A stretch of DNA of 64,000 nucleotides from Escherichia phage PNJ1902. The stretch lies in sequence record OK254197.1, one strand, 5' to 3'. The notes below the pieces were generated by a model. It saw nothing but the letters and a program-made list of their open reading frames with translations. It was not told where the DNA came from and ran no database searches. Below are positions 37,244-62,259 of the stretch, in pieces; position 1 is the stretch's first letter, and each line of letters begins with the position of its first letter. A program made the position numbers and the translations under genes.

Positions 37244-37281
37244 TAAATGCAAAAAGGGGAAGGAGCATAGCCCCCTCCCCT
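37244..37281 (-). terminator. Rho-independent terminator (minus strand) after DNA-binding protein gene
   Basis: GGGGAGGG/CCTTCCCC hairpin followed by TTTTTGCATTT on minus strand. Confidence 0.5.
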
Positions 37282-37299
37282 TAGGTTTAATTTACCAGA

Positions 37300-38067
37300 T
37301 TATTCAGCAGCCGCAGCTTTTGCATCCAGTTTAGCACGCTTAGCGGCACCATCATAGTCCTTAGCAACCAGACCACGACGAGACAGCATAGATTTAACAC
37401 CGCGCTCAGACTTACCAGTTTTCTCAGCGATCTCAGCAACAGTCATGTTAACCAGATCCAGACCTTCTAACAGATCTTCACGAGTTTTAGCACTTGAAGT
37501 TTCCTGTACCGGCATAGCAGCGATACGACCTTCACGAAGCAGGCTCAGAGCTTTACCACGGATCTGCTTGATATTACGACCGAAGTGAGCAGCGATAGCT
37601 TCAATAGTAGCACCAGCAACAACCTGATTAACAAAATCAGTTTCTTCATCCGGAGTAAAGGAACGAACAGCGGCAGCTTTTTCGGTTGGCTTAACAGAAG
37701 CGGTCATTTCCAGACTCAGGATCTTACCCTGTACCTGTTTAGCACCGAACTGACCACCAGCTACAGCAGCAGCGATTTCAGCATAGGTATACTGACCAGC
37801 ATGAGCGTTCAGGAAATCAACCAGTTCAGCTTCCTGCTCAGGAGTCCACGGGGATTTCTGTACTTCGTTAGCTTTTTGTACTTCAAAACCTTCTTTACGC
37901 AGTTTAGAGCCAACAGAGCGAGCAGTAACATCTTTGCCAGTTTCAGCAGCCAGTTCAGCAGCGATAGCAGCTACTTGTTCTTGAGAGATTACAGCAACAC
38001 CCAGAGCAGTGGCTTTTGCTTTCAGAGACTCAGTTACACCTTCTACGTTCCAGTTCAGTTTAGACAT
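37300..38067 (-). CDS. Putative DNA-binding protein with four tandem HTH-like modules
   Basis: 255 aa; four internal repeats of about 35 aa (e.g. ...IAAELAAETGKDVTARSVGSKLRKEG... / ...IEAIAAHFGRNIKQIRGKALSLLREG...); host-optimal codon usage. Confidence 0.5.
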   Translation of the reverse strand: MSKLNWNVEGVTESLKAKATALGVAVISQEQVAAIAAELAAETGKDVTARSVGSKLRKEGFEVQKANEVQKSPWTPEQEAELVDFLNAHAGQYTYAEIAAAVAGGQFGAKQVQGKILSLEMTASVKPTEKAAAVRSFTPDEETDFVNQVVAGATIEAIAAHFGRNIKQIRGKALSLLREGRIAAMPVQETSSAKTREDLLEGLDLVNMTVAEIAEKTGKSERGVKSMLSRRGLVAKDYDGAAKRAKLDAKAAAAE

Positions 38068-38842
38068 TATTATTTTTCTCCAATAGTTCTTTAATCGACA
38101 GGATTTCTATCCCATTCGTTTCGGCTTTCTTATAAGATGAGGAAGAACGTTTTGATTCATCCTCACAGATTAGGTATTTGACGTCTTTAGTAACGGATTT
38201 CTTAACCGTATACCCTAGACTTTCTAAATAGTTTGTTGCATCCGTTCTATTTGCAAAATCTTGCAAAGATCCGGTAATACATACCGCGATTCCTTTTGGC
38301 TGGGCAACTAATTCATCTGTAATGATGATATTAGCTTTTGCACCTCTGATACCTGTTGAGAATTTCCACGGTAGTTCGATAACATCCTTGCCTTGTGGGG
38401 AATTTAGCCAGGCTTTATAGTTTTCTCCAGCCTTACCGTCAGCCTTCACATCGTGGAAGCTAGTGCAATTTTGGGATAATTTCTTTGCTGCAACCTCTCC
38501 AATTAGAGGGATTCCTAAAGAACCGAGAACTGAACCAAAGTCAATGTCTCCGCGAACTTTAGTATTTAATTCGCTAATTAACTTAGCGGCAACCTTGCTA
38601 CCCACGGCTCTAACCAAATCTTCTTCGGTTAGGTAAAATAGTTCTGAAATCTTCGTCAGCTCCAGCTTCTCAATAGTTTTTGGGCCAAAGCCCTTTAACT
38701 TCATTTTTGAACAGAAGTTCTCAATTAACTTACTTGATTGCGCTGGACAGTTGGACTTATTCCGACAGAATAATTGTCCGTTGACAAGATCTAGCTTAGA
38801 ACCACAAGAGGGACATTGTGTTGGAATTTCGATTTTCATCAA
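38060..38842 (-). CDS. NAD-dependent DNA ligase, C-terminal part (Zn finger, HhH, BRCT)
   Basis: 260 aa; CPSCGSKL...CRNKSNC zinc finger, HhH-like GIPLIGEVAAKKL, BRCT-like C-terminus. Confidence 0.8.
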   Translation of the reverse strand: MMKIEIPTQCPSCGSKLDLVNGQLFCRNKSNCPAQSSKLIENFCSKMKLKGFGPKTIEKLELTKISELFYLTEEDLVRAVGSKVAAKLISELNTKVRGDIDFGSVLGSLGIPLIGEVAAKKLSQNCTSFHDVKADGKAGENYKAWLNSPQGKDVIELPWKFSTGIRGAKANIIITDELVAQPKGIAVCITGSLQDFANRTDATNYLESLGYTVKKSVTKDVKYLICEDESKRSSSSYKKAETNGIEILSIKELLEKNNNV

Positions 38843-38869
38843 ATTTCTTCCTTATCAATTTATATAAAT

Positions 38870-38898
38870 ATTATAGCAAGTATTTAAGCATTTAGCAA
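38870..38898 (-). promoter_or_regulatory. Early promoter within ligase spacer
   Basis: TTGCTA - 17 bp - TATAAT then ATTTATATAAATT, followed by RBS AAGGAA. Confidence 0.6.
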
Positions 38899-38962
38899 CT
38901 ACAATTTTAACTAACTTTGCTTACCCTCGCCATAACTTTCTATCCCTCAACTGAATGATAAT

Positions 38963-38991
38963 AGTATATACCTAAGCGGCGAAAATGTCAA
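38963..38991 (-). promoter_or_regulatory. Second promoter within ligase spacer
   Basis: TTGACA - 17 bp - TATACT. Confidence 0.4.
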
Positions 38992-39041
38992 TAACCACTT
39001 TATAATTCCGATATGGTAGATGGGTAGCAAAGGGTTATGTA

Positions 39042-40013
39042 TTAATCGTATACTCGCTCTACGATGCACGGGATTACACCACCAGCACGAATTACTCGAA
39101 TCTGGCAACCGATCTCTAGATCGAGAGAGTTAATATAATCAACGTTATTAAGAGTCGCTTTAACAATTGTAGCATCATCAATAATTACCGGTTCGAAATA
39201 ACCAACTGGAGTTACTTTACCAGAAGCCCCTACCTGCCATTCAACTTTAGTAAGAGTTGTAATCTCGCCTTCTTCATCCTCTTTAATAGCGAATGCTCCA
39301 CGAGGAAATTTATTAGTCCAGCCTTCACGGAAGAATTTGTTGTTGTCATTAATACGAACAACTTTACCATCCGTCGGAATCCATTTAAAGAAGGAACGCA
39401 CATTAACAACTGTTAAGAAGTCCTCATTCTCTAGCCAGAGCATATCTTTTAAATACGATTCTGTAATACCTACAGATTCAGCAGAACACTGGATACCGTA
39501 TGCAACGAAGATTAGACCACCTTCTCCGATACGTTGTACGAAATCATCACTATCTTTGAGGTTAATAGCACCAGAGGCAAAGTTACGTTTATTTTCTACT
39601 TCTTTTGTAATTAGAACTTCACCAGTGATTTGAGTAGGTACTTTTTGGGAAATCTTTTTAGGGATGTTCAGCAATCTTACGTTGCTTGTGACATCATTCC
39701 CTAGAATGCCATTACCACGAGTTAGTGCTTGAACAAATTCGCCATTAATATATAACAGAGAAATCGCACAACCATCTAACTTATCAGTTTCTACCTGACC
39801 TAATGGATTAAACGGAGGTTTATCTCCACGATTATAATAAACTTTCTGTAAAGAATACATACGATACAGATGTGGAATATCTCCCTTAGGCCCAATCTCT
39901 TCTTCTAACGGAAATCTTTTAATCAGACGATCATATTCTTCGTCAGAGATTAAAGACATGCCTTGATAATATGCTTCTTGACAGCGTTTAATAAATTCTT
40001 TTACATTAGTCAT
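39042..40013 (-). CDS. NAD-dependent DNA ligase, N-terminal part (adenylation + OB domain)
   Basis: 323 aa; KxDG adenylation motif (ETDKLDGCAIS), NAD-ligase-like N-terminus. Confidence 0.8.
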   Translation of the reverse strand: MTNVKEFIKRCQEAYYQGMSLISDEEYDRLIKRFPLEEEIGPKGDIPHLYRMYSLQKVYYNRGDKPPFNPLGQVETDKLDGCAISLLYINGEFVQALTRGNGILGNDVTSNVRLLNIPKKISQKVPTQITGEVLITKEVENKRNFASGAINLKDSDDFVQRIGEGGLIFVAYGIQCSAESVGITESYLKDMLWLENEDFLTVVNVRSFFKWIPTDGKVVRINDNNKFFREGWTNKFPRGAFAIKEDEEGEITTLTKVEWQVGASGKVTPVGYFEPVIIDDATIVKATLNNVDYINSLDLEIGCQIRVIRAGGVIPCIVERVYD

Positions 40014-40044
40014 TTATTTATATCTCTCATCAATTTATATAAAT

Positions 40045-40073
40045 ATTATATAATAAAACTGAGTTGAAAGCAA
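40045..40073 (-). promoter_or_regulatory. Early promoter for ligase N-terminal gene
   Basis: TTGCTT - 17 bp - TATAAT, ATTTATATAAATTGA discriminator. Confidence 0.6.
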
Positions 40074-40084
40074 ATACATTTATA

Positions 40085-40117
40085 AAGAAAAAGCCAAGAA
40101 CTAGGCATTCTTGGCTT
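40085..40117 (-). terminator. Rho-independent terminator (minus strand)
   Basis: AGCCAAGAA-loop-TTCTTGGCT hairpin followed by TTTTTCTTT on minus strand. Confidence 0.55.
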
Positions 40118-40409
40118 TGAGTTCTTCAGCTCGTTTCTGTACTTCATGTAAAACCTCAGATTCACTAAGAATCTGTGTAAACGCATAGAAAAGCTGTGAT
40201 GTTGTTTCTAGGGTGTAAGGAAAAGAGAAGCCAGATTTCGTTGGAAACCATTCATCATTAATATCAAGAAGCCAGTAACGAATACCCATGTATAGATTCC
40301 CACGAAATTCAGATACTGTTAATCTTACTTGTTCTCCCTCCTTCTCCCAGAGTATGATGGACTGGTCATCAACGTGTCCTTCATAGTTTTGATTTACCTG
40401 TTCGCTCAT
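40101..40409 (-). CDS. Hypothetical protein
   Basis: 102 aa ORF, acidic. Confidence 0.5.
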   Translation of the reverse strand: MSEQVNQNYEGHVDDQSIILWEKEGEQVRLTVSEFRGNLYMGIRYWLLDINDEWFPTKSGFSFPYTLETTSQLFYAFTQILSESEVLHEVQKRAEELKAKNA

Positions 40410-40423
40410 TTACATATCCCAAA

Positions 40424-40449
40424 TACACAAAAAGCCCCATATAGGGGCT
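40424..40449 (-). terminator. Rho-independent terminator (minus strand)
   Basis: AGCCCC-TATAT-GGGGCT hairpin followed by TTTTTGTG on minus strand. Confidence 0.5.
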
Positions 40450-62200: not shown

Positions 62201-62229
62201 TTGCTAATCTACTAAATTATATGTATAAT
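62201..62229 (+). promoter_or_regulatory. Early promoter
   Basis: TTGCTA - 17 bp - TATAAT. Confidence 0.65.
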
Positions 62230-62259
62230 ATATTTTTAAATTGATGAAACGAGGCTATT

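Follow-up and report, generated by a model that had tools for sequence, protein, structure and literature searches.

Results

Organization of the ligase locus

We analysed a stretch of 64,000 nucleotides from Escherichia phage PNJ1902 (OK254197.1), referred to below as the window. The source genome is a Tequintavirus with approximately 98% identity to many T5-like phages. At 38060..40013 the minus strand of the window carries two neighbouring genes, which we take, with a probability of about 0.92, to be the two-gene NAD+-dependent DNA ligase (ligA/ligB) typical of T5-like phages (Demerecviridae). The initial annotation had described two separate open reading frames at this location, and both were present. 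Their coordinates, together with those of the surrounding signals, are given in Table 1. The gene order specific to the T5-type ligase, with ligA, ligB, and D5 following one another on one strand, was found here.

Table 1. Genes and transcription signals at the split ligase locus, in window coordinates.
Feature	Position	Strand	Basis
Intrinsic-terminator-like hairpin, 13 pairs then T run, directly after D5	37254..37282	-	Terminator scan
D5 gene (DNA-binding protein / early-late regulator)	37300..38067	-	phrog_323 D5-like, 1.5e-71
ligB (T5.117 homologue), ligase subunit B, 259 aa from ATG	38060..38839	-	ORF list, Pfam, PHROGs, PDB match
Intergenic spacer, 202 bp (199 bp if TTG start used)	38840..39041	-	
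AAGGAAG ribosome-binding site of ligB	38853..38847	-	Sequence
Promoter P-K 28a	38844..38918	-	T5 RefSeq annotation, coordinates transferred from NC_005859
Promoter P-K 28b	38937..39011	-	T5 RefSeq annotation, coordinates transferred from NC_005859
ligA (T5.116 homologue), ligase subunit A, 323 aa	39042..40013	-	ORF list, Pfam, PHROGs, PDB match
Promoter 5' of ligA, TTGCTT-17-TATAAT	40019..40093	-	Annotated, unnamed, in T5 RefSeq
Terminator-like hairpin 5' of ligA promoter, closing the preceding transcription unit	40090..40118	-	Terminator scan

After a short N-terminus resembling Ia (AYY..ISDEEYD), LigA carries a nucleotidyltransferase domain and an OB fold. LigB carries a Cys4 zinc finger, a BRCT domain, and between them an HhH region that is shortened. 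Pfam searches matched LigA to DNA_ligase_aden (PF01653, 2e-23) and DNA_ligase_OB (PF03120, 3.6e-22, residues 252-321), and LigB to BRCT (PF00533, 5e-8, 33.5 bits vs. a cut-off of 21.3); the HhH matches of LigB were weak (PF12826, 24.5 bits, under the cut-off of 27). The active-site lysine of the KLDG motif in LigA is K78, aligned with K115 of E. coli LigA, and the zinc-finger cysteines C9, C12, C25, and C31 of LigB align with C408, C411, C426, and C432 of the E. coli enzyme. The putative Ia region (AYYqg..ISDEEYDrL), the part that in LigA enzymes provides NAD+ specificity, is shortened, and its alignment with the Thermus and E. coli counterparts is confined to stretches that are individually not significant.

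Two full-length LigA profiles were tiled by the halves: TIGR00575 by LigA at positions 63-378 and LigB at positions 388-651, and phrog_3869 at positions 9-381 and 388-654, respectively, leaving 6-9 positions uncovered. In PHROGs each half has a separate family that it matches end to end, phrog_3359 for LigA (4.8e-176, residues 1-323 on positions 1-325 of 325) and phrog_3498 for LigB (7.1e-137, residues 1-258 on positions 1-255 of 256). In the PDB, LigA matched chain 9hu3_A (E = 8.6e-104) and LigB chain 9hu3_B (E = 6.1e-81). Profile searches with Pfam, TIGR00575, and PHROGs all recovered the ligase motifs. Neither half reached the NCBIfam LigA equivalog cut-off (TIGR00575, 444.45 bits), the scores being 175.8 and 109.7 bits. 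In motif IV an arginine (R220) replaces the lysine of E. coli (K290), and the enzyme is therefore a divergent LigA. Judged by its sequence, the locus is a divergent, split LigA homologue and not an "equivalog".

The T5 products of ligA (AAU05253) and ligB (AAU05254) are called ligase subunits in a published T5 paper (PMC3632103). Literature searches on the split ligase and on PDB 9hu3 returned no relevant paper.

Break point and spacer

When aligned to bacterial LigA, the two subunits are divided in the linker that joins the OB fold to the zinc finger, at approximately E. coli residues 393/402. The initial annotation had placed the split between these two domains, and this was confirmed. The identical break point was found in 12/12 Demerecviridae loci, where subunit A ends in ..GG[VI]IPxIVxRVY[DE] and subunit B starts with MKIxIPxxCPxCGS. 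The lineages compared were Tequintavirus, Epseptimavirus, Sugarlandvirus, Priunavirus, Novosibvirus, the Vibrio Ermolyevavirinae, and Aeromonas Shenzhenvirus, and since all of them have the same break point, the earlier suggestion that the split is ancestral for the phage group was borne out.

The spacer length of 199 bp given initially holds if ligB starts at TTG (38060..38842, 260 aa in the ORF list). In all annotated relatives and in PDB chain 9hu3_B the start is the ATG one codon further on (MKIEIP...), and with this start the spacer is 202 bp. The ATG lies 7 nt past the AAGGAAG Shine-Dalgarno sequence, so the good ribosome-binding site claimed for the second half was confirmed. Stop codons occur in all three frames of the spacer, and the frame of ligB differs from that of ligA (202 mod 3 = 1); hence no reading frame bridges the gap.

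Conservation divides the spacer in two. The 37 bp beside ligA are variable among relatives and the 165 bp beside ligB are near-invariant, with identities of 100% vs. 95.6-98.2%, 98.8% vs. 88-93%, and 77.6% vs. 68.5% when compared with the flanking coding DNA. This conserved part is wholly covered by two annotated 75-nt promoter segments.

Several other candidates for the content of the spacer were rejected. A split intein or trans-splicing was discarded: subunit A ends in VYD, subunit B starts with MKIEIP, and because the two halves together leave just 6-9 positions of the LigA profiles uncovered, neither has additional sequence that could be an intein. A mini-ORF (MARVSKVS, ATG at 38932) is not kept in the Klebsiella phage. 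A 53-aa ORF (38947..39108) overlaps the 3' end of ligA and P-K 28b and lacks support, although one relative has it annotated as a hypothetical protein of 40 aa. The predicted fold of the P-K 28b leader was more stable than that of shuffled sequences (-27 kcal/mol, z = -3.3). A conserved RNA structure was nevertheless rejected: the 3' arm is the -10 region of P-K 28a, Rfam finds nothing, and in an alignment read by eye three leader pairs are broken in the Klebsiella phage spacer with no compensating change.

Promoters and transcription unit

Both promoter-like elements proposed initially lie on the right strand and equal the promoters annotated in T5. P-K 28b (TTGACA-17-TATACT) matches the consensus at 11/12 positions, with the -35 at 38991..38986 and the -10 at 38968..38963, and transcription from it would start near 38956. 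P-K 28a (TTGCTA-17-TATAAT) matches at 10/12 positions, with the -35 at 38898..38893 and an extended -10 (TGcTATAAT) at 38878..38870, and its start site is predicted near 38863. The P28 promoter names presumably go back to Gentz & Bujard 1985. In a promoter scan of 4.1 kb these two were the best matches; the scan gave 7 promoter-like matches vs. 9 ± 3 in shuffled sequences, and since this total is not above expectation the scan alone proves nothing. The case for the putative promoters is carried by conservation and by the T5 RefSeq annotation of the identical bases. At least one near-consensus sigma-70 promoter was found just 5' of ligB in 12/12 gaps examined, including gaps of 59-75 nt in uncultured relatives.

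Downstream, the start of D5 and the stop of ligB share 8 nt (ATGTCTAA); the two genes are therefore co-transcribed and probably translationally coupled. The hairpin directly after D5 is likely to be the 3' end of this ligB-D5 transcription unit. Given the overlap and the terminator that follows, the gap between ligA and ligB is a transcription-unit boundary, neither junk nor scar. The promoter 5' of ligA has an exact 22-nt stretch (40029..40050) in common with P-K 28a (38854..38875). No terminator after ligA was detected in a scan of the window's spacer, and the ligA transcript therefore probably reads through too. As for the hairpin 5' of the ligA promoter, the T5 record also has an annotated terminator in this region, but at a different position, after T5.114, which corresponds to a site near 40429..40448 of the window.

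Discussion

A two-subunit ligase

The NAD-binding/adenylation module lies in subunit A together with the OB fold, and the zinc finger, the helix-hairpin-helix (HhH) DNA-binding region, and the BRCT domain lie in subunit B. Made as separate chains, the two subunits would assemble non-covalently into the equivalent of the single-chain bacterial LigA. That LigA and LigB of this phage form a heterodimer is suggested by analogy with their 54%-identical homologues of Providencia phage PR1, which were deposited as two chains. P-K 28b and P-K 28a, early promoters in tandem with a Shine-Dalgarno sequence after them, would be read by host RNA polymerase carrying sigma-70 and launch a ligB-D5 message ending at the terminator after D5, with ligA using its own promoter. 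Going by their database annotation, the spacer promoters presumably fire in this phage, in which case ligB would be transcribed more heavily than ligA.

Could the two reading frames instead be a single ligase gene interrupted by a sequencing or assembly frameshift, or a pseudogene? Most NAD-dependent ligases are single-chain, and nothing further speaks for this explanation, which we regard as extremely improbable. No evidence of a frameshift was found: the halves are 202 bp apart with stops in every frame, unlike a frameshift, and the diagnostic residues are all kept in both halves. The same arrangement is shared by hundreds of independently sequenced genomes; it occurs in approximately 1,050 phage records where at least 80% of the joined query is covered at one place, and in a 60-row sample of that ranking every T5-family row was matched in at least two pieces. 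Moreover, the two separate chains of a homologue were deposited together as a structure (PDB 9hu3). The initial annotation had also considered the split a possible scar of an excised intron or homing element. On this explanation, a group I intron or free-standing homing endonuclease gene would have interrupted an intact ligase gene, as in "genes in pieces", and its later loss would have left the spacer. A fission must have happened at some point, because uncultured T5-like genomes contain unsplit ligases that are collinear with the two halves, and the gap does take accessory genes: a GIY-YIG ORF (213 aa, Pfam 1.1e-5) in Salmonella phage SP3, NADAR in Proteus phage Stubb, and DprA-like genes in Vibrio phages. 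The 3' end of ligA beside the SP3 insert is unusually diverged (ligA 91% vs. ligB 97.6% nucleotide identity). However, the conserved part of the spacer consists entirely of promoter segments, stops occur in all frames, and no endonuclease remnant was found in it. An Rfam search at E≤1 gave no intron, the only hit being a chance snoRNA match outside the spacer. The inserted genes vary by lineage, whereas break point and promoter are constant. GIY-YIG genes were present in only two distinct phages of the collection (three records, two of them SP3 copies), too few for us to retain this endonuclease as the ancestral cause of the split. They always lie between the ligA stop and the promoters and are therefore recent arrivals in a pre-existing gap. 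We thus did not uphold the scar explanation and consider it quite improbable.

A further explanation is that LigB is semi-independent. Produced in excess with D5 from strong tandem promoters, it would act by itself in DNA binding or scaffolding (e.g. BRCT/HhH-mediated recruitment to the fork with D5), and LigA would use it part-time. This would fit a ligB that heads a separate transcription unit with D5, probably with translational coupling, and a promoter before ligB that is kept family-wide, even in gaps of 59-75 nt. Approximately 100 clusters of stand-alone LigB-like proteins in metagenomes point in the same direction. Yet ligB was directly downstream of ligA in every locus examined, and the unsplit relatives show both parts working as one protein. 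We find this role for LigB unlikely.

Returning to the two-subunit ligase, we tentatively suggest that its fission was tied to promoter placement, a possibility we hold to be real but rather doubtful. An ancestral compact single-chain ligase, of the kind that uncultured T5-like phages still have, would have been broken in the OB-Zn linker as a strong sigma-70 promoter for ligB-D5 became fixed there; the boundary would then have been kept across cultured Demerecviridae and would now serve as a landing site for GIY-YIG endonuclease, NADAR, and DprA-like genes. If true, the locus would document how regulatory architecture can select for a split enzyme.

Both the split of the ligase and the promoters in the gap are already known, having been part of the T5 genome annotation for approximately two decades; the observation is real but ordinary. 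With that annotation and a homologous two-chain PDB structure in existence, it carries little weight as a discovery. For annotation, we recommend the names ligase subunit A and ligase subunit B for the two reading frames, in place of a frameshift or pseudogene flag, and an entry of the spacer as the P-K 28b/P-K 28a promoter pair. The promoter in every gap examined, the 59-75 nt gaps, the unsplit relatives in T5-like synteny, and the gap insertions add modestly to what is known and could be the starting point of an evolutionary study on a small scale.

Comparison with known systems

Phage T5 (NC_005859) has the same genes in the same order (ligA, T5.116, AAU05253/YP_006944; ligB, T5.117, AAU05254/YP_006945), the same flanks (T5.115 upstream, D5 and D6/dnaB downstream), and the same protein lengths (323 + 259 aa). 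Its spacer, in which both promoters are annotated, is 100% identical to the one described here. The coding DNA differs slightly, with nucleotide identities of 95.6% for ligA and 95.9% for ligB, and the source phage is therefore another Tequintavirus and not T5 itself.

In Providencia phage vB_PreS_PR1, of a different genus (Priunavirus), the homologues are found in PDB 9hu3/9i5i as chain A (339 aa) and chain B (248 aa, "DNA ligase subunit B"). These proteins are 54% (A) and 54.5% (B) identical to LigA and LigB of the window over their full length, with the same two-chain layout and break point, and the PR1 gap likewise has a tandem promoter pair. The PR1 record differs in having a terminator right after ligA, where the scan found none here.

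The domain order NTase, OB, Zn, HhH, BRCT, preceded by a putative Ia region, is that of E. coli LigA, a single-chain bacterial enzyme (PDB 2owo; TIGR00575). Kept here are the KxDG lysine (K78 = K115), the motif V lysine (equivalent to K314), and the Cys4 finger. The phage enzyme differs from it in being two chains with a total of 582 aa vs. 671, in the shortened Ia and HhH regions, and in the change of Lys290 to Arg.

Relatives with intact or intron-containing ligases had been named as worth checking. Intact forms exist: uncultured T5-like phages (P0032, P0053, P0104, and seven more clusters) encode unsplit ligases of 555-578 aa, collinear with LigA + LigB, at 35-42% identity to A and 30-37% to B. 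No intron was found in the Rfam search of the spacer. The unsplit genes lie at the same syntenic position, flanked by T5.113-115-like genes on one side and D5-like/DnaB/primase genes on the other. Each is a single ORF with a linker of 5-15 residues where the T5-like gap falls (in P0032 ...GVEIKPLSRTVINLDINCPSC...) and has no promoter at the junction. In a neighbour-joining tree of LigB-equivalent regions, drawn without support values, some of the unsplit forms were basal and others were scattered among the split ones.

T4-like phages reportedly contain "genes in pieces" that arose by homing-endonuclease insertion, such as the split nrdA of Aeromonas phage Aeh1 and the T4 topoisomerase genes 39/60. 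As in those cases, an essential DNA-metabolism enzyme is encoded by two adjacent genes, whose products would here too reassemble. Unlike in those cases, where a homing endonuclease gene lies in the gap, the ligase gap holds promoters only, and endonuclease inserts are rare and secondary.

Results

Many Tequintavirus (T5-like) genomes shared approximately 98% identity with the ligase region of PNJ1902. The T5 RefSeq record (NC_005859) contains ligA (T5.116) and ligB (T5.117), which are called ligase subunits in a published T5 paper (PMC3632103), and the T5 spacer was 100% identical to that of the window over all 199 bases. Two features of the T5 spacer, the promoters P-K 28b and P-K 28a, are typed "regulatory". 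A homologue has also been solved. In each of the PDB entries 9hu3 and 9i5i, a chain of 339 aa named "DNA ligase (NAD(+))" is accompanied by one of 248 aa named "DNA ligase subunit B". Rebuilt from the alignment, chain A matched the ligase gene of Providencia phage vB_PreS_PR1 (PR1), a member of the same phage family, at 100% identity, and the PR1 locus encodes the matching subunit B gene as well. A literature search found no paper describing the two entries. A split ligase with promoters in its gap is already known.

Pfam searches assigned an adenylation domain of NAD-dependent ligases (2e-23) and a ligase OB fold (3.6e-22) to the ligA product, and a BRCT domain (5e-8) plus weak helix-hairpin-helix (HhH) matches to the ligB product. 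Together the two proteins tiled the full-length LigA profile TIGR00575 nearly without gaps (positions 63-378, then 388-651), as they did phrog_3869 (9-381 and 388-654), and each half matched a PHROGs family of its own end to end. In LigA the adenylation lysine is K78, within KLDG, and the motif V lysine is kept; R220 (39353..39355) replaces the motif IV lysine, K290 of E. coli (DGKVVR vs DGVVIK). The zinc-finger cysteines C9, C12, C25 and C31 of LigB aligned to E. coli C408, C411, C426 and C432. Profiles, break point, synteny and promoters all agree, and these sequence characters place the ligase in the T5-type two-subunit family. The motif IV arginine was also seen in PR1 and in those unsplit compact relatives whose sequences were read (for example DGTVSR, DGIVER and DGFVYR in protein clusters P0032, P0053 and P0087), and appears to be a signature of this phage ligase clade.

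The initial annotation had placed the split between the OB and zinc-finger domains, and alignment to E. coli LigA agreed. The last aligned residue of LigA, 320, pairs with E. coli residue 390, with the C-terminus near 393, and LigB residue 3 (ATG numbering) pairs with residue 402; the break (~393/402) therefore lies in the OB-zinc finger linker. The 199-bp spacer reported initially exists, but its length was counted from a TTG codon. Translation of ligB almost certainly begins at the next codon, an ATG, which makes the gap 202 bp. This ATG is the ligB start in all annotated relatives, agrees with the N-terminus of the solved homologue, and lies 7 nt downstream of the Shine-Dalgarno sequence AAGGAAG, the good ribosome binding site proposed for the second half.

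Features of the ligase locus (window coordinates)
Feature	Position	Strand	Remark
ligA ORF	39042..40013	-	323 aa
ligB ORF	38060..38842	-	260 aa, counted from TTG
D5 (DNA-binding protein / early-late regulator)	37300..38067	-	3' of ligB
ligA promoter	40019..40093	-	upstream of ligA; transferred from T5 RefSeq
Promoter P-K 28b	38937..39011	-	transferred from T5 RefSeq
Promoter P-K 28a	38844..38918	-	transferred from T5 RefSeq
22-nt repeat, copy in P-K 28a	38854..38875	-	exact
22-nt repeat, copy in ligA promoter	40029..40050	-	exact
22-nt repeat, third copy	62224..62245	+	3 mismatches
Hairpin preceding ligA promoter	40118..40090	-	
Terminator-like hairpin after D5	37282..37254	-	13 pairs

Both promoter-like elements previously noticed in the spacer proved to be the cores of the annotated T5 promoters P-K 28b and P-K 28a. 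The cores (TTGACA-17-TATACT, and TTGCTA-17-TATAAT with an extended -10 TG) were the top scorers in a local scan, which showed no enrichment of promoter hits over shuffles (7 hits vs 9 ± 3). The ligA-ligB gap is a transcription-unit boundary. The 8-nt overlap of ligB with the D5 start (ATGTCTAA) and the flanking hairpins give the layout terminator, ligA promoter, ligA, P-K 28b, P-K 28a, ligB-D5, terminator. A hairpin scan detected no terminator 3' of ligA in the window, and transcripts from the ligA promoter are therefore likely to run on into ligB; three promoters would then serve ligB and D5, and one would serve ligA. P-K 28a and the ligA promoter have an exact 22-nt repeat in common, TATAATATTTATATAAATTGAT, which reaches from the -10 element into transcribed sequence; no such repeat is expected by chance, and ligA and ligB may be regulated in common. 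A degenerate third copy lies elsewhere in the window. The predicted P-K 28b leader forms a long hairpin (38830..38960, minus strand; -27 kcal/mol, z = -3.3), with the P-K 28a -10 region as its 3' arm. It was rejected as a conserved structure and is probably incidental, since the pairing is lost in the Klebsiella phage spacer.

In tblastn searches with both proteins joined as the query, approximately 1,050 phage records had one place covering at least 80% of the query. Within a 60-row sample of the ranking all T5-family rows matched in at least two pieces, with identities of 95-99% in Tequintavirus, 72% in Klebsiella Sugarlandvirus, 57% in Proteus Novosibvirus, 47-52% in Vibrio Ermolyevavirinae and 44% in Aeromonas phage Akh-2; non-family matches were single pieces of at most 30% identity. 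The break point was the same in all 12 loci compared closely, LigA ending in GG[VI]IPxIVxRVY[DE] and LigB starting with MKIxIPxxCPxCGS. The 165 bp of spacer adjoining ligB, which coincide with both annotated promoter segments, were more conserved than the surrounding genes: 100% in close Tequintavirus relatives including T5 (ligA/ligB coding DNA 95.6-98.2%), 98.8% in Epseptimavirus phage smaug (ligA 88%, ligB 93%) and 77.6% in a Klebsiella phage (68.5%). Tandem promoters approximately 94 nt apart were seen in T5-like, Klebsiella, Proteus, Providencia, Aeromonas and some Vibrio phages. The ligase is split in uncultured IMG/VR relatives too, with gaps of only 59-75 nt that retain a consensus TTGAC[AT]-17-TATAAT promoter.

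The 37 bp on the ligA side of the spacer varied among relatives, and insertions fall there. A check of relatives for intact or intron-containing versions, as proposed in the initial annotation, did find inserted genes, each of them 3' of the ligA stop and 5' of the promoters: a 213-aa GIY-YIG endonuclease gene in Salmonella phage SP3 (MG387042, L005:1565-2206), a NADAR-domain gene in Proteus phage Stubb (L006:1592-2209; Pfam 1.6e-31), a DprA-like gene (phrog_768) with small ORFs in Vibrio phages JSF10 (L007:1816-2388) and River4 (L008:2212-2772), and a 64-aa ORF in Salmonella phage smaug. The gap behaves as an insertion hotspot. It is curious to find a NADAR gene inside the locus of an NAD-dependent ligase. 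Directly 5' of ligA, some close relatives (HMD-P3, HK6 and others) carry an extra ORF of 62 or 90 aa that overlaps or abuts the ligA start and is absent from the window and T5 (window 40014..40100 vs L001:3507-3695 and L004:3515-3787); this indel accounts for two-piece megablast matches.

Several public records contain oddities. The SP3 record mislabels the GIY-YIG gene "ligase subunit A", the real ligA "hypothetical protein" and D5 "portal vertex protein". Escherichia phage vB_EcoS_I14 (PP892525, L002) is T5-like and shares 97.7% identity with the window over the ligase locus; its taxonomy line reads Ounavirinae; Felixounavirus, and it looks misclassified. In the unrelated Serratia jumbo phage 2050HW (NC_048668, L014:1106-3090) the NAD-dependent ligase is annotated as three consecutive ORFs (65, 59 and 535 aa). 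This fragmentation differs, being located at the N-terminus, and may reflect a genuine split, an intron or faulty sequencing.

Discussion

An exhaustive LigB search of 1.84 billion representative proteins returned approximately 100 clusters of stand-alone LigB-like proteins (240-265 aa) and ten clusters of unsplit 555-578-aa proteins that run collinear with both subunits (identity 35-42% to LigA and 30-37% to LigB), three of which were followed to contigs. By tblastn or Pfam, the ligase neighbours in P0032 and P0104 match the T5 neighbourhood: T5.113-115-like genes precede the ligase, and D5-like, DnaB and primase genes follow it. Judged by layout, P0053 looks similar in gene order and sizes, with a 247-aa gene after the ligase; its ligase neighbours gave no diagnostic Pfam hits. 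None of the three had a promoter at the LigA/LigB junction. Unsplit ligases in T5-like neighbourhoods establish that a compact single-chain form exists within the broader T5-like group, and it is plausible that this form is ancestral. In a rough neighbour-joining tree of LigB-equivalent regions, built without support values, the unsplit forms fell partly at the base and partly among the split ones, a picture compatible with one fission or with more.

Stop codons interrupt each of the three frames of the gap, and ligA and ligB are read in different frames, which excludes a simple frameshift; a pseudogene is excluded as well. The initial annotation had suggested the scar of an excised intron or homing element. 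Against an intron, the spacer gave no Rfam match, each half carries stop or start signals of its own, and the homologue was solved as two chains; a split intein was rejected as the ends of the ligase halves carry no spare sequence. A homing element that left its scar in the distant past has a low probability, and no feature of the spacer speaks for it. Only two distinct phages of the collection (three records) carry the GIY-YIG gene, which is therefore a recent arrival and not the cause of the split.

LigA and LigB are translated separately and would then associate as the equivalent of a single-chain LigA, LigA providing NAD+-dependent self-adenylation and the OB fold, and LigB the zinc finger, the HhH DNA clamp and the BRCT domain. 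We infer their association in the window phage from the co-deposition of the two homologous chains in the PDB. Our additions to the known system are small (the promoter-in-gap rule across the family, minimal gaps, unsplit relatives and the gap as an insertion site) and could perhaps justify a brief comparative note. LigA and LigB of the window share 54% and 54.5% identity with the respective PR1 subunits. Compared with canonical LigA, the window's ligase is a compact, divergent and split homologue that stays under the NCBIfam equivalog cut-off; its Ia and HhH regions are shortened, and arginine stands in for the motif IV lysine.
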